Of a stretch of 16,084 nt of DNA, positions 746-16,084 are shown one piece after another; the stretch's first letter is position 1; every line of letters begins with the position of its first letter. Under the pieces are notes generated by a model. That model had not been told where the DNA came from, ran no database searches, and saw only the letters and a list, made by a program, of their open reading frames with translations. The stretch is from Anaerolineae bacterium (lineage in GTDB: Bacteria; Chloroflexota; JAHJIN01), in NCBI GenBank assembly GCA_034435155.1, contig DAOTYG010000103.1, positions 1 to 16,084 of the forward strand, given 5' to 3'. The position numbers and the translations under genes are program-made.

Positions 746-1168
746 TTAAAACGGCAATTCGTTCTCCTCCAGGTCTGGTGGTGGCTCACCCTCTACTTCC
801 GGGGCCTCGGCTGCAGCCTCGCCACGCCCGGCCAGGAAACGCACGTTAAGGGCGTTGATCTCGAAAGAAGCACGTGGCTTGCCATCGTTGCCGGTCCAGA
901 CGCGCGGTCCGCCGGTCTCCGGGTCTGGACGCAGGCGTCCTTCCACCAGAACCGGCCGACCTTTGGTCAGGTACTGATTGCAGATCTCCGCTTGTTTACC
1001 CCAGGCCGAAACCCGGAACCAGACAGTCTCTTCTTGTTGATTGCCTTCCCGATCCGTCCACCGGCGCGAGGCTGCCACACTAAAGTGGGTCACGGCCTGA
1101 CCGGTAGGGGTATAGCGCATCTCTGGATCCCGTCCCAAATATCCCGCGATGATGATCTTGTGGTACAT
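746..1168 (-). CDS. ssb: Single-stranded DNA-binding protein (OB-fold SSB with acidic C-terminal tail ...EENELPF)
   Basis: 140 aa: MYHKIIIAGYLGRDPEMRYTPTGQAVTHFSVAASRRWTDREGNQQEETVWFRVSAWGKQAEICNQYLTKGRPVLVEGRLR.... This is the canonical SSB N-terminal OB fold plus a Gly/Glu-rich linker and a D/E-x-x-L-P-F tail. Confidence 0.92.
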   Translation of the reverse strand: MYHKIIIAGYLGRDPEMRYTPTGQAVTHFSVAASRRWTDREGNQQEETVWFRVSAWGKQAEICNQYLTKGRPVLVEGRLRPDPETGGPRVWTGNDGKPRASFEINALNVRFLAGRGEAAAEAPEVEGEPPPDLEENELPF

Positions 1169-1252: not shown

Positions 1253-1261
1253 GACTCAGTT

Positions 1262-1425: not shown

Positions 1426-1539
1426 GTAACTACCTACCCTCCCGCAGGTTTGGGCGCAATGACCAGCCCAGACGCCCAGATGACCGGCTGCATCGGTTGC
1501 CAGCCCCTTTCTAACCTGCGGGAGGGTTCAGGGTAATTC
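1426..1539. mobile_element. MITE-like element (~114 bp) with ~25-bp imperfect terminal inverted repeats GTAACTACCTACCCTCCCGCAGGTT / AACCTGCGGGAGGGTTCAGGGTAATTC
   Basis: The left TIR nearly matches the terminus of the IS66-like element at 15867..15889 (GTAACTGCCTACCCTCCTGCGAG). There is no coding capacity. The right TIR abuts or overlaps the stop codon of the cyclodeaminase-family gene. Confidence 0.6.
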
Positions 1540-2530
1540 ATAATTCTATCTCTACTCCCAGGCCCAACTCGGCAGCCCGGTTCAATACCCGCCGGGCCGC
1601 CGCCACGTCCTGCACTGCCACGCCCACGGACTTGAAACAGGTGATCTCATCGGCGCGCTCGCGGCCGGGCCTGCGCCCCAGGACGATCTCGCCCAGCTCG
1701 GCGTGGATATGAGACTCAGTGATGAGGCCCTGCTGCAAGGGGATGAGCAGGTCGCCGGCCTCGGCCAGCGACGCCTGTCGCGAGTCAATGACCACCTTCG
1801 CGCGGCGGATCGTCTCCGCGTCCACCTCTTGCATCTGAGGGGTATAAGCACCGATGGCGTTGATGTGCGTGCCCGGTCGCACGTCCCGGCCAGCGAAGAC
1901 CGGCGTGGTCGAGGTGGTGGCCGTGCAGATGACGTCGGCCTGACGCACGGCCTCGGCCGGCGATGCGGCCACGCGGACGTCGGCCGGGATGGGGCCGCCA
2001 CGCCCGCTCAGCTCGGCGGCGTAGCGGGCTGCCTGGTCTGGGTTGGCGTCGTAGACCAGGGCGCGGGCGATGGGCCGGACGGTGCAGACGGCCTCCAACT
2101 GCGTGCGGCCCTGTGTCCCGGCGCCAAAGATGGCCACGACCTCTGCGTCCGGCCGGGCCAGCAGGTCCGTGGCCGCGCCGGAGGCGGCGCCGGTGCGCAG
2201 CGCGGTGAGGTATGTGCCGTCCATCAACGCCACCGGCGCGCCGGTCTCACCGTCCACCACTACGACCACTGCGTGGATGGTAGGCAGACCCCGGCCCAGG
2301 TTGCGCGGGAACACCGAGACGATCTTGGCCCCCAGATCGCCAGAGCCGGCCAGGTAGGCTGGCATAAAGAGGGTCACGCCTTCGTGCTGGGGGACCGGGA
2401 GCTGGGTGCGCAAGGGCACGTTCGCCTCGCCGGCTGAGAGTTGTGCGAAGGCCGTCTTCATCACCTCGATGCACTCGCGCATGGGCAGGGCGCGCTGGAC
2501 GTCGTTTTTGGAGAGGAGCCGGAGTTTCAT
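1538..2530 (-). CDS. Ornithine cyclodeaminase / mu-crystallin family protein (possible ketimine/Pyr2C reductase)
   Basis: 330 aa with Rossmann motif [17 protein letters not shown] and the family-conserved block [23 protein letters not shown]. It overlaps the upstream oxidase gene by 4 nt, giving operon-like spacing. Confidence 0.88.
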
Positions 2531-2533
2531 CTG

Positions 2534-3691: not shown

Positions 3692-3731
3692 TGTCCCCCC
3701 TTACAAGATCCCCACCAGTCATTTTGCTCTC

Positions 3732-3760
3732 ATTGTACTCTGGGCCAGGGGCTTTGTCAA
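3732..3760 (-). promoter_or_regulatory. sigma70-type promoter for oxidase/cyclodeaminase operon (TTGACA-17-TACAAT on minus strand)
   Basis: Reverse complement reads aTTGACAaagcccctggcccagagTACAATgag, about 35 nt upstream of the ATG at 3691. Confidence 0.45.
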
Positions 3761-3890
3761 TACTGGGGATGCCGGGGGATGGTTCAGAATTGGTTGAAAA
3801 TTTCTGTACCGCCGGGTCTTTATTGCCCCTCCCCCCTTATAGGCTGCTAAAACGGCTCCTTGGGGAAAGCCTGGATTCAGAGGGCGTGCT

Positions 3891-4040
3891 GACATCCGTG
3901 CATAACTTTTGTCAGGGAAGGAACAAGTTTTTGCGATGGCGAAGCCGCCGCAAAAACCCCTACGAGGTTCCCCTCCCCGAAGGGACATGAAATGGAGAGT
4001 GAGGCAGTGCTCTCATGGGTTTAATTTACGCACGGCTGTC
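3891..4040. repeat. Dispersed repeat family A, copy 3, arranged as a MITE: short left TIR GACATCCGTGCATAAC, central hairpin GTTTTTGCGatGGCG-aagc-CGCCGCAAAAAC, and an inverted full front module ending ...GTTTAATTTACGCACGGCTGTC
   Basis: The reverse complement of 3960..4040 aligns base-for-base with the 543..640 module of copy 1 (GACAGCCGTGCGTAAATTAAACCCATGAGAGCACTGCCTCACTCTCCA...). Confidence 0.6.
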
Positions 4041-4050
4041 AAGCGTGGGC

Positions 4051-4079
4051 TTGACTTGCCCAGGCGATTCGGATATACT
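4051..4079 (+). promoter_or_regulatory. sigma70-type promoter for ybaK-like gene (TTGACT-17-TATACT)
   Basis: cTTGACTtgcccaggcgattcggaTATACTgg. A GGAGACAGG Shine-Dalgarno precedes the ATG at 4123. Confidence 0.4.
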
Positions 4080-4122
4080 GGATGTGTCAGGCGCTTATCA
4101 TCTCGTATACTGGAGACAGGAT

Positions 4123-4602
4123 ATGCCCCAGCAATTGAGTGCCAGTGCCCGTAAGGTCCAGGAGGCCCTGGCTGCATACGGCCTTGACTGTCGCGTGGTG
4201 GAATTACCTGCCAGCACGCGCACTGCCCGGGAAGCGGCCGCGGCCGTGGATTGTCAGGTGGGCCAGATCGTCAAATCGCTGGTCTTTCGCGGCGTGCATA
4301 CGCAACGCCCGATCCTGGTGGCAGCAAGCGGGCTGAATCGCGTGAATGAGCAGCGGTTGAGCGAGCTGGTCTCTGAGCCGATAGAAAAGGCTGATGCTGA
4401 TTTCGTGCGGGCGCGTACCGGGTTCGCTATCGGCGGGGTGCCGCCTGTAGGACACGCGGAGCCATTACAGACGTTTATTGACGCTGATCTCTTGCAGTAT
4501 GACGAGATCTGGGCGGCGGCCGGCACCCCTCATGCCGTGTTCCGGCTTACCCCGGCGGACCTGATCCGGATCACCGGCGGTCAGGTGATCTCGATCACCT
4601 GA
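4123..4602 (+). CDS. ybaK: YbaK/ProX-type aminoacyl-tRNA editing deacylase (Cys-tRNA(Pro) deacylase family)
   Basis: 160 aa: MPQQLSASARKVQEALAAYGLDCRVVELPASTRTAREAAAAVDCQVGQIVKSLVF...GFAIGGVPPVGH...VISIT, which is the YbaK fold signature. The ORF track extends the frame back to 4015, but that stretch lies inside a repeat. The internal ATG at 4123 has a proper Shine-Dalgarno and gives the typical ~160 aa length. Confidence 0.85.
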   Translation: MPQQLSASARKVQEALAAYGLDCRVVELPASTRTAREAAAAVDCQVGQIVKSLVFRGVHTQRPILVAASGLNRVNEQRLSELVSEPIEKADADFVRARTGFAIGGVPPVGHAEPLQTFIDADLLQYDEIWAAAGTPHAVFRLTPADLIRITGGQVISIT

Positions 4603-4810
4603 CCTGAGATGGGCGAACCACCTGGTGGGTCGGTTCGGGCTTGCTCGTTACGCGGGTGATGCCCGGCCCGACCCTGTAAGGGGTTGGCCGTCAGGGACCC
4701 GGCGCAGCCCAGCCCCATATGGTTGAGCAACCGCTGGCTAAAGGTATTGGGATTAGTACCAAATCCCTATTTCGGGATCGCAGATCACGTCCGATGGTAC
4801 AAACTTCCTA

Positions 4811-4839
4811 TTGCCATAGAGTGACAGATCGTGTATAAT
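4811..4839 (+). promoter_or_regulatory. Consensus sigma70 promoter (TTGCCA-17-TATAAT) driving the flp-type pilin gene
   Basis: ctaTTGCCAtagagtgacagatcgtgTATAATagt. The predicted 5' UTR ends in the AGGAAAGGAGG Shine-Dalgarno, 8 nt before the ATG. Confidence 0.5.
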
Positions 4840-4901
4840 AGTAACGGAGGGTAAGGAGAGCTAACCCTTCCCTATCATCTCAGGAAAGGAGGTAAGCCGC
4901 C

Positions 4902-5060
4902 ATGTTGGTTCGCCGTGAGGAAGGGCAGGGTATGGTGGAGTATGCGCTGCTCATCGTGCTGATCTCCATCGCCGCCTTGGTCGTCCTGTTGCTGATCGGC
5001 CCGCAGATTCTCACCGCTTTTAGCATGGTCAACAGCGCGCTGGGCAAGGGCCTCACCTAG
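4902..5060 (+). CDS. flp: Flp/Fap-family type IVb prepilin (52 aa)
   Basis: Not in the ORF track because it is short. MLVRREEGQGMVEYALLIVLISIAALVVLLLIGPQILTAFSMVNSALGKGLT carries the Flp processing motif G/XXXXEY (G/QGMVEY) and then a hydrophobic helix. A strong Shine-Dalgarno, a consensus promoter and an intrinsic terminator flank it. Confidence 0.72.
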   Translation: MLVRREEGQGMVEYALLIVLISIAALVVLLLIGPQILTAFSMVNSALGKGLT

Positions 5061-5121
5061 TCTCGACTCTCGACCATATCCATCCAGCCCATCATCTCAA
5101 GCGTTCTTCACAGTTTATCCG

Positions 5122-5157
5122 AAACGGGGCCTCGTGAGAGGTCCCGTTTCACTTTTT
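5122..5157 (+). terminator. Rho-independent terminator after flp gene
   Basis: AAACGGGGCCTCgtgAGAGGTCCCGTTTcaCTTTTTCTCC: a stem of about 12 bp with one mismatch and a 3-nt loop, followed by a T-tract. Confidence 0.6.
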
Positions 5158-5278
5158 CTCCAGATGGGCCGGGTGCTAAATGAACCTTTTGCCGTCAGGT
5201 CAGGTAATCATAATGTTCGCACGAAAATGAAATACGCCGGTATGCTCGCGCGGGGTGTGCCACCTCGCGTTTCCCCCT

Positions 5279-5303
5279 CGTGCCCACGCTCCGCGTGGGC
5301 ACG
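5279..5303. repeat. Perfect hairpin palindrome CGTGCCCACGC-tcc-GCGTGGGCACG (11-bp stem); a paralogous palindrome CACCCACGC-aga-GCGTGGGTG lies at 5359..5379
   Basis: Two related palindromes built on CCCACGC-N3-GCGTGGG sit about 80 bp apart in the 530-bp flp-tgpA spacer. They look like REP elements or paired operators. Confidence 0.5.
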
Positions 5304-5454
5304 CAGCAGGGATTGGGCAACAGCCAGGCGTTCCTGGCCGCACGACCCGGCGTTTTGCACCCACGCAGAGCGTGGGTGTGAGCAACGGTGGTTTTCCCGC
5401 GCTGGCGGCGGGTCACACTCCCGGTGGTCGCCGCGAGCCAGGCCAGGAGGCTCA

Positions 5455-5544
5455 GTAGATGGAAATTCGTGCTCCTCGGCGGTCTGTGACCGCCGAGCGC
5501 GAAGCGGCGGGTCACCCAGTCAGGCCTGGGCCTGGCAGACCCGC
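5455..5544. repeat. Dispersed repeat family A fragment (inverted CAGACCGCCGAGGAGCAC(G)AATTTCCAT module plus direct GGCCTGGGCCTGGCAGACCCGC module)
   Basis: The reverse complement of 5455..5486 matches 1360..1391. The stretch 5523..5544 matches 1346..1367 on the same strand. Both copies translate to RPPRSTNFH in ORF-track artefact ORFs. Confidence 0.55.
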
Positions 5545-5593
5545 TTTGAGCAACTTTTTCCATCTATTGAGGCTATTTAGAGGATGGTGAACT

Positions 5594-7849
5594 ATGCGCA
5601 TCCGTGCCGGTTGGTTGTCGCTCTTTTGTCTGGGCTGTATGTTGCTCAGCACCGTGTGGTCTATTCAGGAGGCCAAATGGACCCCGGCGTTGGATTCGCT
5701 CGTCCCGGTCACATTGGCAGCCCTGATGATGGGCCTGGTGCTAAGTCATCTCCGCTATCCGCGCTGGGTGGCCAACCTGTTGGGCCTATGGGCCGGTGGT
5801 GAGTTTATCACCTTCCAGATGGCGGCCATCGTGGCCCCTGGCCCGACCTTCGAACTGCGAGAGCGGCTGCTCCTGGTGGGCTGGCGTCTCCAGCAATGGG
5901 GGCTGGCGGTCATCACTGGCGCGTCCAATAGCGATCATCTCATCTTTGTCCTACAACTCTCTGTGTTTCTGTGGCTTATTGCCTTTGTGGCGGCCTGGCT
6001 GGTGTTTCATAGCCATCGGCCGTGGTGGGCTATCGCCCTGACCGCGATCCCGCTGCTCATCAACCTCTATTATGCCCGCCATCTTAACCCCAACGGTTTT
6101 CTGATCTTTTTCACCGGCAACGCCCTCGTATTGCTGGTCCGGCACAACATCCAGATGCAGGAAGACGCCTGGCTGCGCGCCCGGGTCTCTCGAACGGCCG
6201 ATGCCCACTGGGACCTGCTGTGGACGGGCGTGACGATCACCCTGTTTTTAGTGACCGCAGCCTGGGTGGTTCCTGGCGCTTCCATCAGCGAGGCGGTGAG
6301 CACCGCCTGGGAAAACATGAGCCAGCCCTGGCAGGATTTCCAGATGCACTGGTATCGCCTGTTCTCCGCCCCGGAGGCCGGAGCCGGGACATTGACCCGC
6401 TTCGATGGCACATTACGTCTGACTGGGCCGGCCGTCCTGCCGGATACGCGGGCGTTAGAGATACACGCCCCTCGGCCCCATTATTGGCGAGCCGTAGCCC
6501 TGGATCACTATGATGGGCAGCAGTGGACGACGACCGCCGCCGTGGAGGTGTTGGTCGAGGAAGGCGATAATGCGATCCGGGATCGCGTTGAGCTGGCCTA
6601 CCGCCGGCGCGAGGTCATGGTCCAGCGGATCCAACCCCGGCGGCCCTATGGGGGTTTGCTGCTGGCGGGTGGGCAGTGGCTCAAGGCTGACCGCGCGGCC
6701 ACGATCAAGACTTATGTGGACCCGGCCAGCCCCACCATTGCCGCTGCTGAACTGTCTGATGCAGCCCTCGTTTACGGGCGGTTCCTCCTGTTCCGCAGCA
6801 GCGAATATGTGGTCGAGTCATCGTACTCGGTGGCCTATGTGGAGGAATTGCAAGGGGCTGAGACCCAATACCCGCCCTGGATGCGGACGCGATTCCTGCA
6901 ACTCCCGGCCAGCCTGCCGCAGCGCGTGCGAGATCTGGCCCTGGGGATCACCGCAGACGCGCCGACTCCCTATGACAAGGCTGCGGCCATCGAGCAATAC
7001 CTGCGCCAGAATTATACCTATGATCTCTTTGTCGGCGAACCGCCGGCGGAGGCCGATGCGGTAGACTATTGCCTGTTCGAGAGTCGGCGGGGATATTGCA
7101 GCCACTTTGCCTCGGCCATGACGGTGCTATGCCGGGCCGTGGGGGTCCCGGCACGCCTGGTCACAGGCTATAGCAGCGGCGAGTATGATGAGGAAGAACA
7201 CCTGTATGTGGTCCTGGAAAGCCATGCCCACGCCTGGGTGGAGGTCTTTTTCCCAGGGTATGGATGGGTTGAGTTTGAGCCTTCGCCGGGGGTGGCGGCC
7301 CTGGAACGTCAGCGGCAACCGGTGCCGACCGGCCCCTCCGGCAGCTCCCAACCCGGCGGTGGTGGGGAACCGCCCCCGGAGCGCGAGCTGCGCGGGGTAG
7401 AAGAGGTAGAAGTGCCCCCCGATACGACACCCGGCCTGGGACGCGGTTTCTCGTTGGGGTGGGGCGGTTGGTTAAGCCTGCTGATTGGGGTGCTGGTGGC
7501 CGTGCTCGCTGGCAGTGCCTGGGCCTGGTGGCGATGGGGCCTGCGCGGGCTGACGTTTGTGGATGCGGTCCACGAGCGAGTACGCCGCCTGGGGCGCTTA
7601 CTGGGGCTTAAGCAGGCTCCATATCAGACGGACCACGAGTATGCTGCCGTGTTGAGCGACATCGTGCCGGCCGGCCAGCCGGAGATCTCGACCATCACGA
7701 CGATGGTCGTCCAAAGTCATTTTGGGCGGCACAAACCCGGACCAGAAGACCATGACCGGGTCTGGGCAGCCTGGGAACAGTTACGGATCAAGATGTTGAG
7801 CCTGGTATGGCAACGGGTATCCGCCTGGCTGTCGCGCCAGGAGCACTAA
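5594..7849 (+). CDS. TgpA-like transglutaminase-domain membrane protein (N-terminal polytopic DUF3488-like region, transglutaminase-like Cys-His-Asp core, extra TM helix, C-terminal DUF4129-like domain)
   Basis: 751 aa with about 7 N-terminal TM helices. The core is [35 protein letters not shown]...[19 protein letters not shown], which is the transglutaminase-like superfamily signature. A late TM ([22 protein letters not shown]) precedes the tail [14 protein letters not shown]...SHFGRH. Confidence 0.85.
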
Positions 7850-7912
7850 GTTTTGTCTGGTTCCAGCCTGGCATGGGGGCAGGGGTATCTCGAACGTCGC
7901 GGTTAAAGCGGT

Positions 7913-7948
7913 GAGGGCACGGACGGGTGCCGGCCCATCCGTGCCCTC
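7913..7948. other. GC-rich hairpin between convergent genes (GAGGGCACGGA ... TCCGTGCCCTC, 11-bp stem)
   Basis: Inverted repeat with no U-tract on either strand. It may act as a factor-dependent terminator or an RNA stability element, which is uncertain. Confidence 0.3.
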
Positions 7949-8060
7949 GTGCAAAGGAGGAGAGGAGCAGTTGTTCACTGCGCCCCCTATGATACCTCAT
8001 TTTGTCCGTTCTCGCTGGTCGAATGCTAAACGTTTGCCTGACGCAACCCCTACGTTTACC

Positions 8061-8984
8061 CTACGATTGCCCTGTGCCAGCCAATGCCTGTGCGATCTGC
8101 GCGGCCACGGCGGCGTTATTCAGCAGCAGGGCCACGTTAGCGCGCAATGATTCGCCGCCGGTGAGGTCCTGAACCCGGGCCAGTACAAAGGGGGTGAGCC
8201 GGCTGCCGCGCACACTCTGCGTCTCTGCCTCGGCCAGGGCCTGGGAGAGAGCGGCCTCCGCGGCCTGGCCGGCCAATGCCTGCTCCGGCGGCACCGGCAC
8301 GGTCACGAGCACCCCCTGACCCCCCAGTTCCCAATGCGTCCGCGCGATGGCCGCCGCCTGCGCCGGATCATCCACGCGCGCATCCACCGGCAAACCGCTG
8401 TGCGGCGAATAAAAGGCCGGGAACTCGGCGGTGCCGTAGCCCAGGACCGGCACCCCCCACGTCTCCAGATATTCGCGGGTCTTGGGTAAATCGAGCAGGG
8501 ACTTGGCCCCGGCACAAACTACCAGCACCGGCGTCCGGGCCAGCTCCGGCAGGTCCGCCGACACGTCCCACGTCTCCTCCGCACCCCGGTGCACCCCGCC
8601 GATCCCCCCGGTGGCGAAGACGCGAATCCCGGCCTGGTGCGCGATCCACATGGTGGCAGCCACAGTGGTGGCACCATCGGCCCGCTGCGCCACGGCGACG
8701 GCCAGGTCCCGGCGGCTCACCTTGCGCACCTCATCACTGCTCGCCAGCCATTCCAGGGCCTCATTGTTCAGGCCCACGCGAATACGGCCGCCCAGGATGG
8801 CGATGGTGGCCGGGATGGCCCCGTGCTGGCGTACCGTGGCCTCTATGAGCAGGGCCACCTCCAGGTTCTGGGGCCGGGGCAGCCCGTGGGCGATGAGGGT
8901 GGACTCCAGGGCCACTACCGGCAGGCCGGCGCCCAGCGCAGCCTGCACCTCCGGGGCGAGGTGAAGCAGTGTTTCTTCAGGCAT
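8061..8984 (-). CDS. psuG: Pseudouridine-5'-phosphate glycosidase
   Basis: 307 aa and collinear with YeiN/PsuG along its whole length: PEVQAALGAGLPVVALESTLIAHGLPRPQN, ATIAILGG, KVSRRDL, GATTVAATM, VFATGGIGGVHRGAEETWDVSADL, VVCAGAKSLLDL, TREYLETWGVPVLGY and LTGGESL. Confidence 0.95.
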   Translation of the reverse strand: MPEETLLHLAPEVQAALGAGLPVVALESTLIAHGLPRPQNLEVALLIEATVRQHGAIPATIAILGGRIRVGLNNEALEWLASSDEVRKVSRRDLAVAVAQRADGATTVAATMWIAHQAGIRVFATGGIGGVHRGAEETWDVSADLPELARTPVLVVCAGAKSLLDLPKTREYLETWGVPVLGYGTAEFPAFYSPHSGLPVDARVDDPAQAAAIARTHWELGGQGVLVTVPVPPEQALAGQAAEAALSQALAEAETQSVRGSRLTPFVLARVQDLTGGESLRANVALLLNNAAVAAQIAQALAGTGQS

Positions 8985-9083
8985 GGGATTCAGTTCCCAG
9001 AGTGACGAACGACCGCTGACGAATGACCACCGACGGGGGACTGCGGTCAGCGATCTGCTGTCGGCAGTCGGCGGTCAGCGGGC

Positions 9084-10007
9084 CTACTCGCGGTACAGGG
9101 CATCCACGCTCAACTCCCGGCTCACGGCGTCTGGGGAACAAAGGGTGATGGTGGCGGCAGAGACGCCCAGGCGCACCGCTTCGTCCACCGGCAGGTCGTG
9201 GAGGAGGCCAAAGACCACGCCGGCGGTGAGGGCGTCGCCGGCCCCGGTGGCATCCACGACCGGGCAGCGGATGGCCGGGATGTGGCCGCTGACCTCCGGT
9301 GTGGCATAGACCACGCCGCCGGCCCCCAGGGTGATGAGGGCTACCTGTACGCCGGCCGCCACCATCTGCTGAGCCGCCTGGGCCGCATCGGCCTGGGTGT
9401 AGATGTGACAGCCGCACAACACCTCGGCCTCGGCCAGGTTGGGAGCCATGATGGTGCAGCGGTCCAGGTAGCCCTTGAACCGCTCGGCCAGCACCACCGA
9501 GGTGGGGTCCACGCAGACCGGCACGTCGTATCGTTGGGCCAGGGAGAAGGCCCGGCGGATGGCTGGCGGGTGCAGGTTGCCATCCAGGACCAGCATTCCA
9601 GCACCACGGATGAGACGGCGGTGCGCTGAGATATACTCCGGGGTGATGGCGGCGGCGATACCCATGTCGTCCAGGCCCACGGCCAGCGAGCCGTCCGTGT
9701 CCACGATGGCCAGGTAGGTGGCGGTGGGGTATTCGGCCGTGCGGAGCACGTGGCTCAGGTCCACGCCGGCCGCGGCCGTCTGGGCGAGCACCTGCTCGCC
9801 AAAGGGGTCCTCGCCCACGGCGGTGAGGAGGGCCGTGGGCACGTCCAGCCGGGCCAGGTTCTCGGCGACGTTGCGACCCACGCCACCGGCGGTGCGGCGC
9901 ACCGTGCCGGGGTTGGAGGTGGCCGGGACCAGTGGCTCGCGGGTGCGGCCCCGGATGTCCAGGCCGGCGATACCGATGACGACAACGGGGGAGACATTCA
10001 TGAGCAC
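9084..10007 (-). CDS. psuK: Pseudouridine kinase (PfkB/ribokinase family)
   Basis: 307 aa with PfkB motifs NPGTVRRTAGGVGRNVAENLARL near the N-terminus and the catalytic ATGAGDA near the C-terminus. The overall pattern matches YeiC. The ORF-track start is a GTG at 10007, and an ATG two codons in (10001..9999) is an alternative start. The overlapping 363-aa ORF 8977..10068 is a GC-rich shadow frame. Confidence 0.9.
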   Translation of the reverse strand: MLMNVSPVVVIGIAGLDIRGRTREPLVPATSNPGTVRRTAGGVGRNVAENLARLDVPTALLTAVGEDPFGEQVLAQTAAAGVDLSHVLRTAEYPTATYLAIVDTDGSLAVGLDDMGIAAAITPEYISAHRRLIRGAGMLVLDGNLHPPAIRRAFSLAQRYDVPVCVDPTSVVLAERFKGYLDRCTIMAPNLAEAEVLCGCHIYTQADAAQAAQQMVAAGVQVALITLGAGGVVYATPEVSGHIPAIRCPVVDATGAGDALTAGVVFGLLHDLPVDEAVRLGVSAATITLCSPDAVSRELSVDALYRE

Positions 10008-10025
10008 CTCGGAACCAATCCTCGT

Positions 10026-10994
10026 TTAGACCGGCTTGAGCACCGCCAGCGCGATCCCCCGGACGCACAGGCTGGGGTCTTTCCTGAACTCGTATATCTC
10101 CTGGTATTCTGGATTCGCTGATTTTAGGTAACAGCCCCGATTATCGCGGCAGAACCGCTTGACCAGCGATTCCGTTCCTCCCTCACACCCTCGCTCTACC
10201 ACCACGATCTGCCAGTGCTCCGCATCGGGTTGACCGTGAACCAGCACCAGATCACCATCGTGAATCCCGGCATCCACCATGCTATTGCCCCTCGCCTGGG
10301 TGATAAAATACTTGCCGGTTGCCCTGAGTGTGGGCAGGTGGGCGGCTATCCCCCCCACCGGTTGCGGCAGATATGTCTTACCACCTATCAGTACCTCTCC
10401 GGTGGCCGTAAGTTCGATCTGCTCCCAGATTTGCGAGACGTACTGCCACGGAGGGCCGGCCGAGGAAAGCTCCATTCGGGGAATCCAGCGGGCGGTTTCC
10501 CAACACTCGTTCAGCACCCGTTCCATCTTTTCACACCACGAACGCCGCTCTTTATAGCCATACCCGATAGGCCGCTGCGCGCAAAGGCTATGAAAGCAGG
10601 CATCTGCCATCTGATATTCAGCCTGTACGTCGGCCAATGGTTGTTGGCGCAGGCTGGCGAGGTTGCCCAATATGACGTGCATCACCGCCTCTCCCTGACG
10701 GTTCCCCCGACAACGAAAAACCTGGCACGCCTCCTGGTAACAGGCCAGAGTCTGGTCGAGGTCGTTCAGTTCTTGCCGGATGATCCCTTTTACCACCAGG
10801 GCCTGCGCTGGCGCATTTGCATCTACCAGTCCATCTATTGCGCCACAATCCTGCTCCGCCCACTTCAAAGCCTCCCCCCATTCTCCCCGCTTGCAGGCTT
10901 CTAAAGCCTGCTGGCAAGCCCGCGATAGTTTGCCGGTGGGGCTGGTCAGTTCCAACAACGAGATGATCGTCCGCACAGATTCCTGTTCTTTCAT
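10026..10994 (-). CDS. S24 (LexA/UmuD-type) serine peptidase-domain protein with a ~190-aa non-HTH, helical/TPR-like N-terminal domain
   Basis: The C-terminus has the S24 signature ITQARGNSMVDAGIHDGDLVLVHG...HWQIVVVE...GTESLVKRF, with the Ser in GNSM and the Lys in VKRF. The N-terminus (MKEQESVRTIISLLELTSPTGKLSRACQQALEACKRGEWGEALKWAEQDCG...) has no recognisable winged-HTH and looks helical-repeat-like. Confidence 0.7.
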   Translation of the reverse strand: MKEQESVRTIISLLELTSPTGKLSRACQQALEACKRGEWGEALKWAEQDCGAIDGLVDANAPAQALVVKGIIRQELNDLDQTLACYQEACQVFRCRGNRQGEAVMHVILGNLASLRQQPLADVQAEYQMADACFHSLCAQRPIGYGYKERRSWCEKMERVLNECWETARWIPRMELSSAGPPWQYVSQIWEQIELTATGEVLIGGKTYLPQPVGGIAAHLPTLRATGKYFITQARGNSMVDAGIHDGDLVLVHGQPDAEHWQIVVVERGCEGGTESLVKRFCRDNRGCYLKSANPEYQEIYEFRKDPSLCVRGIALAVLKPV

Positions 10995-11011
10995 CTGCCA
11001 TACCCTCCAAT

Positions 11012-12232
11012 CTACGAGACCCGTTTGAATCGGCTCTCCAGCATGTTCAAGGTCTTGACGATGTCATCTGGCAGATAGATGCTACGAGCGGATGCCGTCC
11101 GCTTGATCATGTCAATGAAGCTCAAAACGACCAGGTTCTTGGAGATCCGCTGGCCCTGGCGGGCCATCTCGGCGAACAGCCTGGCGGTATCCGTCAACAT
11201 ACTGATGCGGATCTCAGCCCGGGCCTGCATGGCGATCTTGTCGCCCAGGGCTTTGCCCTCCGCGATCGTTTTCGCCTCCTCACGGGCGCGCTCTGCCTGC
11301 CAGGTATCTATCCATTGCTGGAGCACCTTGTCTTGTAATTCGATGTCCCCCAGGGCCACACTCAGGATCCGGGCACCCAGCCGGGTGGTAGATTGGCGCA
11401 GGCTGTTCTCCAACTCTTTCTGCACGGCCGCCCGGCACTCGGGCTTGATGAGTTCGTCGAGGGTGTAGCGGGCCAGGATGGACCTCAGCGTGCCCTCCGT
11501 ATCGCCGATCACCACCAGCTTGATCCAGCTCATCACCCGGTCAGGCTCGGTTCGCCAGGCCTCCCGGATCCACTTGCAGGTGGCCGCCTTGAAGATGTCC
11601 TCTTCCTTGTCGCCGACCTGGAAGCGCACATCCGCGTTGTACTTGATGGGGATCCCGTCGTGGGTGATCGCGCTCACCTTGAACTCCCACCGTTGCGGGC
11701 GCAGGTCAATGATGTCCCAAACCTTCTCAAAGGGGTCCAGGCGGGGCGGGGGCAGCGGAAACGGCGGGACATGGGAGCCACGAAAGACCCGGCTGAGCCG
11801 GCCGGCCCGCTCCAGCACCACCGCGCTGTCGTTGTAGAGGACCAGGCCGCACGGCCCGCCGACCCTTCGGACCACGTTGCTGCCCGTAGCGATCCGGCCC
11901 TCCTTGATCACCAGGTAGGGGCCGCCAGACATCTGCCCCAGCAGACGGGTGCTCAGGAAGGCCCGGCCTTCCTTGTCCTTTTCCAGCCCATACAGGGAGC
12001 GCACGAAGCGGCCGGCTACCTGCCAGCCGATCCATAGCGCGGTCAGGCCGGGGATCATGCCCAGCAAAACTGGGCCGCCCAGGTCGAGGAAAGAGGTGGG
12101 CCAGGGCCGGATGCCCAGTTGAAAGGACAGATAGACGGCCCCCAGGCTCAACAAAAACCACAGGCCCACGACGAGCAGGCCCGCCAGGGCGATCTTGACG
12201 AAATAGACCAGGGCACGACGGGGATCAAACAT
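11012..12232 (-). CDS. SPFH/Band-7 (stomatin/prohibitin/HflKC-like) domain membrane protein with 2 N-terminal TM helices and a C-terminal coiled-coil
   Basis: 406 aa. Its SPFH core VVLERAGRLSRVFRG..IDLRPQRWEFKVSAITHDGIPIKYNADVRFQVGD fits the pattern seen in QmcA/HflK (V.ERFG...R...PG......IDLR.Q.......T.D...V.VD..V.F.V.D). Charged helical segments follow, such as QAERAREEAKTIAEGKALGDKIAMQARAE. Confidence 0.75.
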   Translation of the reverse strand: MFDPRRALVYFVKIALAGLLVVGLWFLLSLGAVYLSFQLGIRPWPTSFLDLGGPVLLGMIPGLTALWIGWQVAGRFVRSLYGLEKDKEGRAFLSTRLLGQMSGGPYLVIKEGRIATGSNVVRRVGGPCGLVLYNDSAVVLERAGRLSRVFRGSHVPPFPLPPPRLDPFEKVWDIIDLRPQRWEFKVSAITHDGIPIKYNADVRFQVGDKEEDIFKAATCKWIREAWRTEPDRVMSWIKLVVIGDTEGTLRSILARYTLDELIKPECRAAVQKELENSLRQSTTRLGARILSVALGDIELQDKVLQQWIDTWQAERAREEAKTIAEGKALGDKIAMQARAEIRISMLTDTARLFAEMARQGQRISKNLVVLSFIDMIKRTASARSIYLPDDIVKTLNMLESRFKRVS

Positions 12233-12257
12233 AACTTGCCTCTGAGATCGTCTGGGG

Positions 12258-13922
12258 CTATCGCCCCCGCCGCATACCGGTGAGCAGAGCGTCTTCGGAT
12301 GGGGCAGGTAGTTGGGCTGGTTCTTCCCCTGGCTCTACCATGGTCAGGGCGTCAATCAACTGAAACACCAGGGCTTCGTCAGAGAGGTGGACGGCTTCTC
12401 GCTCCAGGATGCGGGTGAGGGTAACCATCATCTTGAGCTGGGCCTGAGTCCACACCGGGGCTAATTGAAGAATGCGTTCGGCTTTGGTCCGGCCGATCTC
12501 GATCTCGATCCGCCGCTGCCAGTTCGCGGCCCAGTTCTTGATCCGCTGTTCCACGATCTTGTCAGGGGGCATGATGTTGCTGATCCCACCCCCCACCATC
12601 TCGATGCCGTAGGGTCTCATCGCTTCCCGCACCCGCTCTCGAAAGGTTTTGGCGATCTCGACGCGGGGGTCCCCCGGCGCATGTAGCGCGTTGCAGGTGT
12701 AATTCAGGATGATCTCCTTGAGGATCGGCGGCCCAATGATCAGCACCAACTCGTCCCAGGGGGTCTTGGAGATGTCTTCTCTGGCCTGCTTATTTTCGTC
12801 GCGTTCCCATTTGTGCTCGATCAGGGTGCGACGAAAAACGGCGTCCAGGACAGCATCTCGATTATAGGGGTACGAATGGCCCAACGTCGGTTGTCGCCCA
12901 TCGGCGCCGATCCGGTGCGGGAAAAAGGTAAAGATGGTGACCGTGATGCCATCCTGGGTCTCGGCCTTGATCCCCTCGTGGATGCGCAACTGGGGGCGCA
13001 GGTCCACCACGGCATACAGGTCCTCGTATTTCTCGGTGAAGCTCAGGCCCGGCGGGACTACCCGCAGGCGGAAGCCGGTGGTGGTTACGGCCACGTGATT
13101 GCAGTCATTGAGGATGATGCCCGGCCCGGCCAGGAACTGGCTGAAGGCATTGCCGGGCACGCGGGGGTCTGGTTTCTCCTGCTCCTTGTTCTCCTGAGTC
13201 TTCCAGTCCTCGATGACATAGTAAGGGTAGTTTGTGCCCAAGGCGAAGGTGATCAGGCTGCGGAAGGCCTGCCGCCGGTGATGTTCCTGGCGCGCTCGCT
13301 CATCGTTCTCCAGGGGGAGGATCAGGCCGGAGAGGAAATAGAGGAACCCCCAGAAGATCAACACCGCCGGCGCGGCGATCAACAGCAAACCCAGGCGTTC
13401 AGCGATCCCGTAGCCGATCAGGCAGGTGAGGCAGAACCAGAACCAGACCAGGCTCAGGGGTTTGACCCCCTTGCCGCGCAACACGGCCTTGCTGAATAGC
13501 CAGGGGCCCAGGATGCCGACCAGAGCGATGGCGATGAGCAGGCCCAGGGCGCCGGGCCATTCCCTCAGGCCCCCCAGCAGCGCGGGGGGGTAAAAACAAA
13601 GAAGGGCTGCCAGTACGGCAAACCCTTCCACGATCAACGCGCCGATCATCTCGGTAAGAAAGTAACCCGCGGCCCCGGCCAGGACGTAGGTCCACACGGC
13701 GATCTCCAGGATCGTCATCTCCGGGCGCTCCAGGGCCTGGGGCTGGACCAGGGCCACCGGGAGGAGGCCGAGCAAGGTGAACGCCTCCATGAACAGCGTG
13801 ATGCCGCCCAGGATCGCCAGGCCCTTGCTCCCCCCGGCGCCCTTGAGCCGACCCAGGGCATAGCCCGCGGCCGCCGCCAGGCCGCACGCCAGCCCCATCT
13901 CCACGAGGAGCGTTATCACCAT
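12258..13922 (-). CDS. Polytopic membrane protein (about 6-7 TM helices) fused to an SPFH/Band-7-like domain; paralog of the downstream gene
   Basis: 554 aa. Roughly the first 200 aa are hydrophobic helices. The SPFH-like core is VAVTTTGFRLRVVPPGLSF...VVDLRPQLRIHEGIKAETQDGITVTIFTFFPHRI and shares the DLRPQ block with the 406-aa paralog. The gene sits 25 nt upstream of that paralog. Confidence 0.7.
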   Translation of the reverse strand: MVITLLVEMGLACGLAAAAGYALGRLKGAGGSKGLAILGGITLFMEAFTLLGLLPVALVQPQALERPEMTILEIAVWTYVLAGAAGYFLTEMIGALIVEGFAVLAALLCFYPPALLGGLREWPGALGLLIAIALVGILGPWLFSKAVLRGKGVKPLSLVWFWFCLTCLIGYGIAERLGLLLIAAPAVLIFWGFLYFLSGLILPLENDERARQEHHRRQAFRSLITFALGTNYPYYVIEDWKTQENKEQEKPDPRVPGNAFSQFLAGPGIILNDCNHVAVTTTGFRLRVVPPGLSFTEKYEDLYAVVDLRPQLRIHEGIKAETQDGITVTIFTFFPHRIGADGRQPTLGHSYPYNRDAVLDAVFRRTLIEHKWERDENKQAREDISKTPWDELVLIIGPPILKEIILNYTCNALHAPGDPRVEIAKTFRERVREAMRPYGIEMVGGGISNIMPPDKIVEQRIKNWAANWQRRIEIEIGRTKAERILQLAPVWTQAQLKMMVTLTRILEREAVHLSDEALVFQLIDALTMVEPGEEPAQLPAPSEDALLTGMRRGR

Positions 13923-13937
13923 TGCCTCTTGCCCTCG

Positions 13938-13950
13938 CTGTTCCGAACAG
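13938..13950. promoter_or_regulatory. Perfect 13-bp palindrome CTGTTC-C-GAACAG in the leader of the SPFH operon (candidate operator)
   Basis: It lies between the predicted -10 (13977..13972) and the AAGAGG Shine-Dalgarno of the 554-aa gene. Its half-sites are GTTC/GAAC in the reverse order of the Cheo box at 481..496. Confidence 0.4.
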
Positions 13951-13971
13951 CCAGCCTTTACGCGTGCTTAG

Positions 13972-14000
13972 ATTATATCATCTTTCAGGCGAATGCGCAA
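13972..14000 (-). promoter_or_regulatory. sigma70-type promoter for SPFH-S24-psuKG operon (TTGCGC-17-TATAAT on minus strand)
   Basis: Reverse complement reads aTTGCGCattcgcctgaaagatgaTATAATcta. It gives a leader of about 40 nt to the ATG at 13922. Confidence 0.45.
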
Positions 14001-14069
14001 TACTTCGATGACCACGATTCAGGGCCACGGTAGGGCCTACCCGGTGAAATCCTTTGTTGGACAAAACCG

Positions 14070-14098
14070 CCTACCCTCCCGCAGGTTTGGGCGCAATG
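14070..14098. repeat. Solo/degenerate copy of the IS66-like terminal repeat (CCTACCCTCCCGCAGGTTTGGGCGCAATG), identical over 29 bp to 1437..1465 of the MITE
   Basis: Exact 29-bp match to the MITE's left arm. Similarity decays downstream (to about 14130) and no right TIR is present. Confidence 0.55.
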
Positions 14099-14144
14099 GG
14101 TCAGACCAGAGCATGTTTCGGCTTGCATATTAGGATGTCGGATG

Positions 14145-14173
14145 TTGACAGATGGTGTGGTCTCTGGTATAAT
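14145..14173 (+). promoter_or_regulatory. Consensus sigma70 promoter TTGACA-17-TATAAT upstream of the 4-TM protein / SIR2 gene pair
   Basis: gatgTTGACAgatggtgtggtctctggTATAATttt. Both hexamers are perfect and the spacer is 17 bp. Confidence 0.5.
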
Positions 14174-14336
14174 TTTAATGAAGCGTAAGAAGGCGCACAG
14201 GCATGGCAGCGAACACAATGGCCGGTTGTGCTTTCGGAGTTTCTCAGCGACAGATGTGAGGCGTGGGGAGATGTTTACCACAGATACGGTGGACCGGAAA
14301 TTGGGCACGGAGGAGCGGGCTGCCCTCGACTAGCGG

Positions 14337-14885
14337 GTGCTCCAGGCCTATTATGCCCGCCTGAACGGCATTGACGAGAACGTGCGGGACCTGACCAAGT
14401 TCTTCTTCGGGATCAACACCCTGGTCATCGGCCTGGTCATCCAGTTCGTCAAGGACGACGTGCAGCAACTTATCCTTGCCATCTTCGGCTACTCTATTTC
14501 CGTGGCCATCTACCTGATCACATACAAGTACTTCCTGTCGTGGAAGCTATATGCGCGGGACATGGACGAGCTCGAGGACCGGCTGGACTATGACATCTCG
14601 CGCCGGTACGGGGAGCGATTGGCCCAGACCCCCGGCAAGACCGTGCGGGTGACGCTGGTGCGGATGCGGTTCAACTTTCTCTTCGTCTTGTTTTGGCTGG
14701 GTGTCATCGCTTACTTTGGGTACAAGCTGTCCTCGATGTATTCCATCGGCTTCTGGGCCACGGCGCTACTATACGTCGTGGCCTTTTTTGTCGTGGCCGC
14801 TGCGCCGTGGGTCTACTTCGCCGGGACGTTGCGACCGGGGGTGCTCTGGGCCGTGGTGGGGGCGCTGTGGGCGCGGGAGGTGTGA
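14337..14885 (+). CDS. Small integral membrane protein (4 predicted TM helices), function unknown; frame is continuous upstream to ATG 14271 through an in-frame TAG at 14331
   Basis: 182 aa from a GTG start with strong GC3 bias. Hydrophobic segments are FFFGINTLVIGLVIQFV, LILAIFGYSISVAIYLITYKYFL, FNFLFVLFWLGVIAYFGY and FWATALLYVVAFFVVAAAPWVYF. The upstream in-frame ATG at 14271 has a GAGG Shine-Dalgarno 9 nt ahead, and its peptide MFTTDTVDRKLGTEERAALD ends at the TAG at 14331. Confidence 0.6.
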   Translation: MLQAYYARLNGIDENVRDLTKFFFGINTLVIGLVIQFVKDDVQQLILAIFGYSISVAIYLITYKYFLSWKLYARDMDELEDRLDYDISRRYGERLAQTPGKTVRVTLVRMRFNFLFVLFWLGVIAYFGYKLSSMYSIGFWATALLYVVAFFVVAAAPWVYFAGTLRPGVLWAVVGALWAREV

Positions 14886-14915
14886 GCGAAGGTTTGCTTT
14901 CCTGGGAGGACGATC

Positions 14916-15866
14916 ATGGCTCTTGAGGATGAGGTAAGAAGTCTGATATCGAGTGAAGTGCTGCCCAAGATCCGTAGGGATCAATGCGTCCTGTTCGTGG
15001 GAGCCGGCTTATCCTGCGAAGCCGGTTTGCCCAGCTCGAGCGACCTGGCGAGGAGACTTGGGCGAACGTTGCCGGAAAGGGAAAGACCAGAGCCGTGTAC
15101 TCTGCGTGAAGTGGCCGAGACATACTTAAGATTCCGCACCAAACAGGAACTCGTGGAGTTCGTCCAGGAAGCCCTGAAACCCATCCGGGGGGAAGATTTG
15201 AATACCACCACCTTTCGCCTGATCGCCCACATTCCACACCTCAACAGAATCATCATCACCACCAATTGGGATACCTTGTTGGAAGGGGCCATTCAAGAGG
15301 TAACAGGGGCACCTCCAGCAATTGTCGTGGAGGATATTGACGTAGGGGGACTGGCTGGTGCTCAATGCGCTATCTACAAGATCCATGGCTCTGTGGATAG
15401 GCCGGGGACTCTTGTGATAACCGAAAGGGACTACCGGCTCAAATATAGGGAGCTATTTGACCCCCGATCGTTGGTCATGGCCCATGTGCGTGCTTTGCTC
15501 GCCCGAAACAACATCATCTATGTAGGATATAGCCTGCGCGACGAGCATTTCGAGGAACTCCTGCGGGAAATTCGGTACGCTTTGACGTATCAAAAAACGG
15601 GAGAGTTCCTGGGCCGCACCAGCTTCCTGGTTACACCCGAAAAACCCGATCAAGAGACACTTAGACGCTTGAGAGGACTAGATATCAGGTGGATCAACGC
15701 TTCGGCACGAGAATTCTTTCAGTTCGTGTTTGCCGAAACAGCCGAGTTTGTCAACCGACAGGAAGAGCTCCAGTTGATTCGGTCGCTGAAGGAACCTTAT
15801 GTAGAGATACACGGCAGTGCGGGGACCGGCAAGACCAGGCTCTTGCGGGAATTAGCCAACAAATAG
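14916..15866 (+). CDS. SIR2-like (SIR2_2/defence-type) domain protein fused to the start of a STAND/NB-ARC-type NTPase, ending right after the P-loop at the IS terminus, consistent with IS-mediated truncation
   Basis: SIR2_2 motifs CVLFVGAGLSCEAGLPS, IIITTNWDTLLE, IYKIHGS and IIYVGYSLRDEHF. After them comes the canonical STAND start FVNRQEELQLIRSL...YVEIHGSAGTGKTRLLRELA. A stop follows 5 codons after the GKT, right at the IS-like terminus. The GC content looks visibly lower than in neighbouring genes. Confidence 0.75.
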   Translation: MALEDEVRSLISSEVLPKIRRDQCVLFVGAGLSCEAGLPSSSDLARRLGRTLPERERPEPCTLREVAETYLRFRTKQELVEFVQEALKPIRGEDLNTTTFRLIAHIPHLNRIIITTNWDTLLEGAIQEVTGAPPAIVVEDIDVGGLAGAQCAIYKIHGSVDRPGTLVITERDYRLKYRELFDPRSLVMAHVRALLARNNIIYVGYSLRDEHFEELLREIRYALTYQKTGEFLGRTSFLVTPEKPDQETLRRLRGLDIRWINASAREFFQFVFAETAEFVNRQEELQLIRSLKEPYVEIHGSAGTGKTRLLRELANK

Positions 15867-16084
15867 TAACTGCCTACCCTCCTGCGAGTAGGGAGACTGG
15901 CTGATGGGCAAAGAGGTTGCGCAGTGTCACAAAGACATTCCGCCCCTGCTTGCGACAGGTGGAAATCACCGCCTGCAAGCGGGCATATACCGTTGCTCCG
16001 TGCTCGGTACGGAAACAGCCGCTCACCTTTTGCTTGATTTTGGCCGGCCGCAGGTCTCGTTCGGCCTGGTTATTGGTGAACGGC
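15867..16084 (-). mobile_element. IS66-family-like insertion sequence, right end with 3' part of its transposase gene (CDS 15875..16084, continues beyond window)
   Basis: The minus-strand translation ends ...PFTNNQAERDLRPAKIKQKVSGCFRTEHGATVYARLQAVISTCRKQGRNVFVTLRNLFAHQPVSLLAGG*. This resembles the conserved IS66 TnpC C-terminus (NNxAERxLRP...GRKNWLF...YSLIxTCKLNG.NP). The terminus GTAACTGCCTACCCTCCTGCGAG begins with GTAA and matches the MITE TIR at 1426. Confidence 0.55.

Follow-up and report, generated by a model that had tools for sequence, protein, structure and literature searches.

A conserved trio of two SPFH genes and a TPR-S24 gene, and its linkage to pseudouridine kinase genes in Chloroflexota

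Why would a bacterium encode two membrane-scaffold proteins, a peptidase of the LexA type and two enzymes of pseudouridine breakdown one behind the other on the same strand? This question is raised by a stretch of 16,084 nucleotides from an Anaerolineae bacterium (Chloroflexota; assembly GCA_034435155.1, contig DAOTYG010000103.1, positions 1 to 16,084), hereafter the window. There, a minus-strand set of open reading frames (ORFs) at 13922..8061 comprises five co-oriented genes for a polytopic SPFH protein (SPFH1), its paralog (SPFH2), a TPR-S24 protein (the third protein), a kinase of the PsuK type and a pseudouridine-5'-phosphate glycosidase (PsuG). An earlier note, made from the sequence alone, had described these genes as a compact operon of non-standard composition. 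We found that the first three form a conserved trio, which in our searches turned up only in Chloroflexota. Our preferred reading, which we hold tentatively and with somewhat less than even confidence, is that a cytoplasm-facing SPFH scaffold with a LexA-type cleavable adaptor serves as a membrane platform for conflict systems, while psuK and psuG are genuine salvage enzymes and long-standing, co-transcribed passengers.

The SPFH1-SPFH2-TPR/S24 trio

Scanning one genome per species yielded 79 loci related to the window (L### and P#### are labels of related loci and proteins, with P0116 equal to L084 and P0211 to L085, and WIN denotes the window). All but one were labelled Anaerolineae, Thermoflexales, Caldilineae or other Chloroflexota (78/79), the last being named only "uncultured bacterium". 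Homologs of SPFH1 and SPFH2 were numerous, and the few with source names came from Chloroflexota metagenome-assembled genomes. Across the 79 loci, SPFH1 and SPFH2 were adjacent and co-oriented wherever the contig spanned both genes, and the ~320-aa gene directly 3' of SPFH2 proved to be a full-length homolog of the window third protein: a profile of 43 such genes matched the latter at 1.5e-16 with both halves covered. A six-frame profile search located this third gene after SPFH2 in 58 loci, and in three relatives (L054, P0116/L084 and P0211/L085, each with IAAG, GDSM and LKR) the S24 domain is fused to the SPFH2 C-terminus, which suggests that it works at this end of SPFH2 and on the same side of the membrane. 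The linkage of the S24 protein to the SPFH pair, as proposed in the earlier note, thus extends well beyond the window. In an exhaustive search, only 3 proteins of 1.84 billion representatives reached E<=1e-30 against the window third protein, and a metagenome scan with the TPR-S24 alignment returned mostly generic LexA-like genes, with SPFH or PsuK nearby in 0 of 80 loci. Our literature searches for an SPFH protein described with S24, with a pseudouridine kinase, or in this arrangement in anti-phage defence returned no such description.

SPFH1 and SPFH2 are true SPFH paralogs with an HflK/C-like fold. SPFH2 matched the Pfam family Band_7 with 67.5 bits (2e-18) and SPFH1 with 30.8 bits over its C-terminal part only (cut-off 23.6), and the features looked for in SPFH proteins were found, namely an alpha/beta SPFH domain, a long coiled-coil helix behind it and an N-terminal membrane anchor. 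In the AlphaFold2 (AF2) model of SPFH1 (predicted local distance difference test score, pLDDT, of 85), the helical bundle comes first, then the SPFH domain, rich in beta-strands (234-451), and finally a helix of 50 residues, and the fold matches of SPFH1 and SPFH2 include the solved aquaporin-1/stomatin complex (9zd2). The polytopic N-terminus of about 200 aa that the earlier note had remarked on in one paralog was recovered as 7 hydrophobic segments inside residues 1-197 of SPFH1; the hydrophobic segments of SPFH2 are one strong and one weaker (a hairpin), and its nearest solved sequence relative is the Pyrococcus horikoshii stomatin PH1511 (best PDB match). The charge (positive-inside) pattern of SPFH1 predicts its N-terminus out and its SPFH domain in. 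The N-out orientation agrees with the SPFH1 of L166, which has an N-terminal signal anchor and an extracellular extension of roughly 200 aa, and a cytoplasmic orientation of the SPFH domains also fits the cytoplasmic-type domains (S24 and the adaptor domain EAD7, see below) found fused to SPFH2 C-termini in relatives.

The third protein belongs to peptidase family S24. Its Pfam Peptidase_S24 match (58.1 bits at residues 220-301, cut-off 23.3) is accompanied by a match to the LexA C-terminal domain in the PDB (2.5e-10), and the beta-domain of its AF2 model resembles LexA C-terminal domains with a Foldseek template modeling (TM) score of 0.77 (M. tuberculosis LexA). In this model (pLDDT 64), the beta-domain is preceded by eight TPR-like helices and a disordered linker, and the fold of the N-terminal half matches TPR proteins. 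The Pfam scan of the third protein gave no helix-turn-helix (HTH) domain, as the earlier note had stated, and only a weak TPR match in the N-terminal half; no transmembrane segment was predicted. Lacking an HTH, the protein is not a repressor of the LexA/cI kind. Its Ser238 (GNSM) and Lys279 (VKRF) align with the Ser-Lys dyad of LexA, Ser119 and Lys156 (references: E. coli LexA and UmuD). Upstream of the dyad, S178-A179-G180 and P182 are invariant when the window protein is aligned with its two close relatives and L042, and by inspection an Ala-Gly occurs at the equivalent position in L166, P0226 and the SPFH2::S24 fusions. About 25 extra residues, predicted to form a beta-hairpin, separate this Ala-Gly from the core in the window protein and the fusions alike. 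When aligned with LexA-like proteins, a Thr-Gly (ATGE, about residue 207) lies nearer to the canonical spacing than A179-G180, although it would be the less likely cleavage site of the two.

The catalytic apparatus is retained in only a minority of these proteins. Judged by alignment columns, Ala-Gly, Ser and Lys are jointly lost in 53 of 63 third genes, and three third-gene representatives scanned with Pfam contained TPR repeats only, with no match to the NfeD domain. Among the other ten, nine are predicted to be active, all with GxSM and six with [LV]K[RK], an expression that overlooked the IKRF of L002 and L003; the tenth (L061) has a Ser at the catalytic column only and neither motif, while L031, counted among the 53, shows a chance GxSM. 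The complete Ala-Gly/Ser/Lys set was found in the window clade, L042, L166/L167 (GRVAAGQP, GSSM, LKRY), P0226 and the three fusions. Since most relatives have a third gene without the catalytic apparatus, proteolysis is not its conserved function; the "S24 peptidase" of the earlier note stands as a conserved partner gene of the SPFH pair and falls short as a generally active enzyme.

The active form also stands out by its evolution, as it diverges far faster than its operon neighbours and has an atypical GC content at third codon positions (GC3). Between the window and L166, the third gene shares 32% identity, in the C-domain alone, as compared with 61-62% for SPFH1/SPFH2 and 85-88% for PsuK/PsuG. 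Its GC3 is 0.67 in the window vs 0.82-0.88 in operon neighbours, and in four relatives the active third gene has 0.59-0.67 vs 0.75-0.91, values that resemble those of SIR2 genes.

One operon with psuK and psuG

On sequence evidence rather than RNA, the five genes are one operon, because the gaps between them are short (25, 17, 18 (or 24) and 99 nt), contain no terminator-like site, and lie between a conserved promoter/leader and a hairpin after psuG, and because the set is kept in L004 and L002 (Table 1). All ORFs and spacings of the compact layout described in the earlier note were present as claimed, and so was its single promoter, insofar as a consensus scan detected no promoter-like site on the minus strand within the cluster and no terminator-like site in any of the intergenic gaps. 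The same scan overlooked the candidate promoter because its -35 fits at only 3 of 6 positions. An 85-nt block spanning promoter and leader is about 95% identical among the window, L004 and L002, while the L002 sequence 5' of the -35 is unalignable with the window and its upstream neighbours differ, as one would expect if promoter and leader are functional. The five-gene set is likewise intact in L004 and L002, though both flanks of L002 are different. The leader palindrome CTGTTCGGAACAG is a single site in the window, is kept in L004 and L002, and fits neither the GAAC-N4-GTTC nor the CTGT-N8-ACAG SOS box.

Table 1 Features of the five-gene operon and its flanking signals (positions in the window)
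Feature	Coordinates	Strand	Description
SPFH1	12258..13922	-	554 aa; 7-TM (transmembrane) N-terminal bundle (residues 1-197), SPFH domain, long C-terminal helix
SPFH2	11012..12232	-	406 aa; N-terminal hydrophobic hairpin (14-36, about 50-74) and SPFH domain; paralog of SPFH1
TPR-S24 third protein	10026..10994	-	322 aa; TPR-like N-terminal half (8 helices, 2-166), Ala179-Gly180 linker, S24 domain with Ser238 and Lys279
psuK (PfkB kinase, PsuK type)	9084..10007	-	307 aa from GTG; ATG at 10001 gives 305 aa
psuG (pseudouridine-5'-phosphate glycosidase, Indigoidine_A)	8061..8984	-	307 aa; profile match
Candidate promoter	13972..14000	-	-35 TTGCGC (14000-13995), 17-nt spacer, extended -10 TGaTATAAT (13980-13972)
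Leader palindrome CTGTTCGGAACAG	13938..13950	-	perfect, 13 nt; candidate operator or leader hairpin, followed by ribosome-binding site GAGGG/AAGAGG
psuK-psuG spacer	8985..9083	-	99 nt; long imperfect hairpin, no U-tract
Hairpin, 15-bp stem	7913..7948	-	113 nt past psuG stop, between convergent psuG and tgpA; likely bidirectional terminator

Two regions of this operon are predicted to be structured. The hairpin region after psuG has a folding energy of -77.3 kcal/mol (z -3.5), and the psuK-psuG spacer one of -47.5 kcal/mol (z -2.65), with the latter structure kept in L004 and not in L002; an Rfam search of the window, this spacer included, gave no match. Beyond the terminator candidate lies, at 5594-7849 (+) and convergent with psuG, the gene of a membrane-bound transglutaminase of the TgpA type (TgpA_N, Transglut_core, DUF4129), and a tgpA-type neighbour also lies downstream of the fusion locus L084, which is without psuKG.

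The identity of the kinase relies on residues and context. The fourth protein is a clear PfkB member (181.8 bits, 2.6e-53, Pfam), and its nearest solved relative is E. coli PsuK (7vkp, 3.7e-48, vs 9e-26 for ribokinase). Against NCBIfam NF007355 it reaches 185.6 bits, below the equivalog cut-off of 540, and is hence a distant member, so that the name PsuK depends on residues and context. At the pseudouridine-contacting positions reported for the E. coli enzyme (EcPsuK, PMC9247573), the kinase retains D16, G41, V42, N45, Y97, M114, N143, S167 and D256, and changes N14 to G, V166 to T and K170 to L. This substrate-site pattern is essentially alike in 34/34 SPFH-linked kinases, three of which have Y97F, while position 167 is S, T or A. 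With the pseudouridine-binding residues kept, there is no reason to assume a chemistry other than salvage, and the suggestion in the earlier note of an additional function for psuKG was not sustained. PsuG matched Indigoidine_A with 419.8 bits (7.3e-126) over profile positions 1-290 of 291. Taken together with the SPFH and S24 matches, all domain assignments of the earlier note were confirmed.

The linkage of psuK to the module is old and persistent, and the genes are co-inherited. Among trio loci with a readable downstream region (n=54), a PsuK-type kinase is adjacent in 27, one gene away in 3, and replaced by another gene in 24; the typical gap between the third gene and psuK is -4 nt, i.e., a stop/start overlap, and in four further loci the kinase follows immediately 3' of SPFH2. 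PsuK-linked loci are spread over at least 5 branches of the SPFH2 tree, and SPFH2 and kinase distances co-vary (Mantel r = 0.85, 0/2000 permutations). A recent, accidental juxtaposition of psuKG with the module was considered and rejected in view of this linkage in at least 5 branches and the co-varying distances. The coupling that the earlier note had called non-standard is therefore a recurrent feature of the family as far as psuK is concerned. PsuG, counted by adjacency at the locus only, adjoins it in three lineages of the genome-scan census (window clade, L029 and L040) and, in addition, in L166 and L172.

Links to conflict systems and competing readings

What could such a trio be for? 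One indication comes from EADs, which have been described as adaptors that bring effectors to conflict systems built around NTPases in multicellular bacteria (Kaur, Burroughs, Iyer, Aravind 2020, PMC7159879). The text of this study mentions Band7-like domains only as scaffolding elements, and includes no SPFH pair of the present kind, no 7-TM SPFH protein and no S24 peptidase. We detected EAD7 in about 19 of 85 SPFH1 homologs (carriers are 830-850 aa long), and further occurrences in single loci. In L005, EAD7 lies at the C-terminus of a second SPFH2 (SPFH2'; 61.9 bits), with the kinase directly behind it; in L047, the third gene carries it N-terminally (45 bits); and in L055, it is part of an EAD7-NB-ARC NTPase that is encoded divergently beside the trio (43.7 bits). 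The operon of L166 (372-10014), whose SPFH2 is 61% identical to that of the window, encodes SPFH1, SPFH2, SIR2-EAD7, TPR-S24, a zinc-ribbon multi-TM protein, PsuK and PsuG. In L171 (1007-3220), a TPR-S24 unit (TSAGPP, GDSM, VKY) is fused to a C-terminal P-loop NTPase; this protein, one of the three at E<=1e-30, is 37% identical to the window third protein over its full length, and its gene lies between an SPFH2 gene immediately upstream, with 49% identity to that of the window, and a DDE transposase. The zinc-ribbon multi-TM protein of L166 occurs in L172 too.

Genes of the conflict type adjoin the active-S24 loci wherever flanks are readable. In the window itself, a divergent unit (14145-16084, +) starts with a perfect sigma-70 consensus (TTGACA, 17 nt, TATAAT, with TG; 14145-14173), followed by an 8xMP membrane protein (14337-14885) and, from 14916 onward, a SIR2_2 + AAA_16 NTPase truncated at the end of the window. 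In PADLOC, this NTPase comes out as ThsA/PDC-S25-like, and its GC3 is low (0.61). L004 contains 8xMP together with a full-length ortholog of this SIR2-NTPase with SIR2_2, AAA_22 and NB-ARC. The neighbours are AbiEii in L002, TIR and a STAND NTPase in L084, and STAND NTPases and an EAD11-trypsin in L085. L084 and L085 both also have an adjoining radical-SAM gene (37% mutual identity) and a TPR-bearing STAND NTPase, in differing arrangements.

SPFH pairs of other architectures were observed as well. In the "type A" pairs of L007-L021 (e.g., L017 5203-7803), a ~220-aa EAD7-bearing insertion lies inside the SPFH domain of SPFH1, and SPFH2 has ~540 aa; a local search found the full EAD7 domain in 10 type-A loci and a contig-edge fragment in an 11th (L016). 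The neighbours of these pairs are an ABC1 kinase, UvrD/PcrA and a DnaJ-domain protein, with no third gene and no PsuK, and at least 10 genomes hold both a type-A pair and a trio-PsuK locus. In the Thermoflexales-type loci L005, L022, L168 and L169, two SPFH pairs lie side by side (tandem or convergent), and in L005, L022 and L168 a PsuK-type (PfkB) kinase stands between them.

From these gene orders, folds, motifs, fusions, conservation patterns and neighbourhoods, a two-layered system may be envisaged, with SPFH1, SPFH2 and TPR-S24 as a membrane module and psuK and psuG as a second layer. On the cytoplasmic side of the membrane, SPFH1 and SPFH2 would together build a hetero-oligomeric ring of the HflK/C or stomatin kind, anchored through the 7-TM bundle of the former and the hairpin of the latter, and the soluble TPR-S24 protein would dock at the C-terminal side of SPFH2. 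Upon a cue, self-cleavage would separate its TPR half from its catalytic half and thereby change what is held at the scaffold. Because the window lineage keeps Ala179-Gly180, Ser238 and Lys279, its TPR-S24 protein probably works as an irreversible switch, and in most relatives, where all three elements are lost, the third protein would be left with binding only. The scaffold as a whole would act as a membrane dock for STAND/EAD-type conflict proteins, i.e., proteins of immunity or programmed death, and the divergently encoded pair of 8xMP and SIR2-NTPase, by virtue of its adjacency, may be the local conflict partner of the operon. psuK and psuG are taken to be co-transcribed with this module because of their old operon linkage, and no finding here shows them taking part in its function. 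The earlier note's idea of an uncharacterised membrane stress or signalling module survives in the sense of signalling with defence connections, which is compatible with the EAD7, SIR2 and STAND associations.

Several observations weigh against this platform reading. An EAD7 search found none in any window ORF, and in PADLOC no model matched SPFH1, SPFH2 or the S24 domain, the third protein giving weak TPR matches only. Most loci with a degenerate third gene lie among housekeeping genes (PrmC, Sua5, glycosyltransferases, tRNA synthetase), and their inheritance looks vertical, which is not what defence islands typically show. As STAND/EAD genes abound in filamentous Chloroflexota, some of the adjacency could be due to chance. 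We also considered whether the window SIR2-NTPase might be the detached counterpart of the NTPase in L171, and found no support for this, the resemblance of the two being limited to the P-loop. For the third protein, the AF2 model is of only moderate quality and the Ala-Gly linker is disordered (low confidence), for which reason the docking of Ala-Gly into the active centre stays a prediction. Finally, psuK is tightly coupled to the third gene, the two overlapping by 4 nt in many lineages, and the functional tie at which this hints is not accounted for by the platform reading.

A phage origin, which the earlier note had entertained in view of a nearby SOS box, found no support. Two viral scans of IMG/VR detected no relatives of the module, and the PHROGs matches (SPFH2 to phrog_200, the S24 protein to UmuD-like and repressor phrogs, none for SPFH1) are all generic at the superfamily level. 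The single GAAC-N4-GTTC (Cheo/SOS-type) box, GAACATATGTTC at 483-494, presumably the one that was meant, adjoins ssb (746..1168, -) and is 13 kb from the operon promoter.

Among the alternatives, the one that survives best is that the SPFH pair and its TPR/S24-like protein are a housekeeping scaffold that organises or quality-controls membrane proteins in the manner of stomatin/NfeD or HflKC, with the SIR2, STAND and Abi neighbours having been inserted there by coincidence and psuKG merely sharing the promoter. The occurrence of the trio in dozens of Anaerolineae species with housekeeping neighbours and a synteny that suggests vertical descent, the correlated SPFH2 and PsuK distances, the catalytically dead third genes (53/63), and the lack of PADLOC or viral matches to the module would all be expected under this explanation. 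We nevertheless consider it unlikely, if still a serious contender, as EAD7, described only as a conflict-system adaptor (PMC7159879), has been joined, in one lineage or another, to each of the three components, the L166 operon includes SIR2-EAD7, TPR-S24 is fused to an NTPase in L171, and the active third gene combines a foreign-looking GC3 with a rate of evolution much above that of its neighbours.

An improbable alternative is a membrane-killing effector, in which the 7-TM bundle of SPFH1 is a latent pore kept closed by the SPFH ring until S24 self-cleavage is triggered by RecA filaments or a neighbouring NTPase; the pore would then open and kill the infected cell (abortive infection). Stomatins regulate channels, and SPFH proteins have been found bound to channels, as in the aquaporin-1/stomatin complex, EADs are said to recruit effectors (PMC7159879), and the intact LexA-type apparatus occurs only in loci with conflict-type partners, either as neighbours (WIN, L002, L084 and L085), as SIR2-EAD7 within the operon (L166) or as an NTPase fusion (L171). 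However, the bundle is equally present in the many housekeeping-looking loci, and nothing points to an interaction with RecA or an NTPase. Least probable is that SPFH1 acts through its 7-TM domain as a nucleoside facilitator, with PsuK trapping incoming pseudouridine, as in the PnuC/NadR pair for nicotinamide riboside, under regulation by the SPFH ring and the TPR protein: although PsuK is translationally coupled to the module in 27/54 loci on at least 5 tree branches, and the operon holds no other transporter whereas E. coli psuKG sits with psuT, PsuK is missing from the vicinity of 24/54 trios, adjacency of PsuG is limited to three census lineages plus L166 and L172, and the EAD7, S24 and SIR2 links would be left unexplained.

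Returning to the platform reading, a more far-reaching version of it, which we regard as speculative and rather doubtful, is that in filamentous Chloroflexota the trio supplies STAND/EAD7 systems of immunity or programmed death with a membrane arm that had gone unrecognised. The SPFH cage would restrain effectors such as SIR2-EAD7, or its own 7-TM bundle, a LexA-type switch, which might respond to RecA filaments or to an NTPase (as the one fused to it in L171), would release them, and the translationally coupled PsuK would tie in the products of RNA breakdown.

SPFH cages (HflK/C, stomatin, prohibitin, flotillin, erlin) have been resolved only recently, and their regulation is still open. Here, genetic linkage, and in some relatives physical fusion, connects an SPFH pair with a LexA-type self-cleaving domain, Death-like EAD7 adaptors and NTPases, which offers a tractable case of an SPFH scaffold under a putative proteolytic or adaptor switch. 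If confirmed, the S24 self-cleavage principle would extend from DNA-binding repressors to membrane assemblies, and the active and fully degenerate forms of one partner protein in related operons represent a natural experiment. The operon link of the module to pseudouridine catabolism is robust and as yet unexplained.

Comparison with known systems

The earlier note had likened the tandem paralogs to HflK/HflC. The likeness holds for the paralogy and the fold, and, in the proposed model, for the combination of an SPFH ring with a protease-type partner as in the HflK/HflC-FtsH complex of E. coli. It does not extend to family membership, which we rejected: SPFH1 and SPFH2 match no NCBIfam family, those of HflK and HflC included, they are anchored by 7 TM segments and a hairpin rather than one TM segment each, and their SPFH domains are predicted to be cytoplasmic, whereas those of HflK/HflC are periplasmic. 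The partner differs as well, being the AAA+ metalloprotease FtsH in E. coli and a soluble Ser-Lys S24 domain, often inactive, here.

A second comparison is with the stomatin-NfeD/STOPP operons (P. horikoshii PH1511-PH1510; E. coli QmcA-YbbJ), in which an SPFH gene is also co-transcribed with a dedicated partner. The long form of NfeD is a Ser-Lys-dyad protease that cuts the stomatin tail, and PH1511 is the nearest solved relative of window SPFH2. However, these operons have one SPFH gene instead of two paralogs, and the window partner has a LexA fold preceded by TPR repeats and lacks a membrane anchor. An NfeD-type partner was excluded, as none of the five window proteins has an NfeD or ClpP-class domain in Pfam.

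With LexA, UmuD and lambda cI, the prototypes of S24, the window protein shares a C-domain that matches the LexA C-terminal domain in sequence and model, the GxSM Ser, the xKR Lys and an upstream Ala-Gly, and the same general plan of a functional N-domain, a cleavable linker (predicted here) and a catalytic C-domain. It differs from them by its N-domain, which lacks an HTH and is TPR-like, or SPFH in the fusions, by about 25 extra residues between Ala-Gly and the core, and by its place in a membrane-protein operon, with no DNA-binding role.

The EAD-coupled conflict systems (PMC7159879) resemble the module in their hosts, filamentous Chloroflexota, and through the EAD7 adaptors, SIR2 and TIR effectors and STAND NTPases found on or beside it in relatives; a STAND-type NTPase with an effector domain (SIR2) adjoins the window operon too, by adjacency only. 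Unlike these systems, the window copy has no EAD, which is confined to relatives (L005, L047, L055, L166 and the type-A pairs), and many copies of the module look like housekeeping loci.

Lastly, the distal genes recall E. coli psuK-psuG-psuT (yeiC-yeiN-yeiM), where a PsuK-type kinase and PsuG are likewise adjacent and co-oriented, and the window kinase keeps the catalytic Asp and most of the pseudouridine-contacting residues. In contrast to E. coli, the window operon is without a nucleoside transporter or regulator, and most related loci have the kinase without an adjacent PsuG. In the window, psuKG instead comes last in an operon that begins with membrane-scaffold genes.

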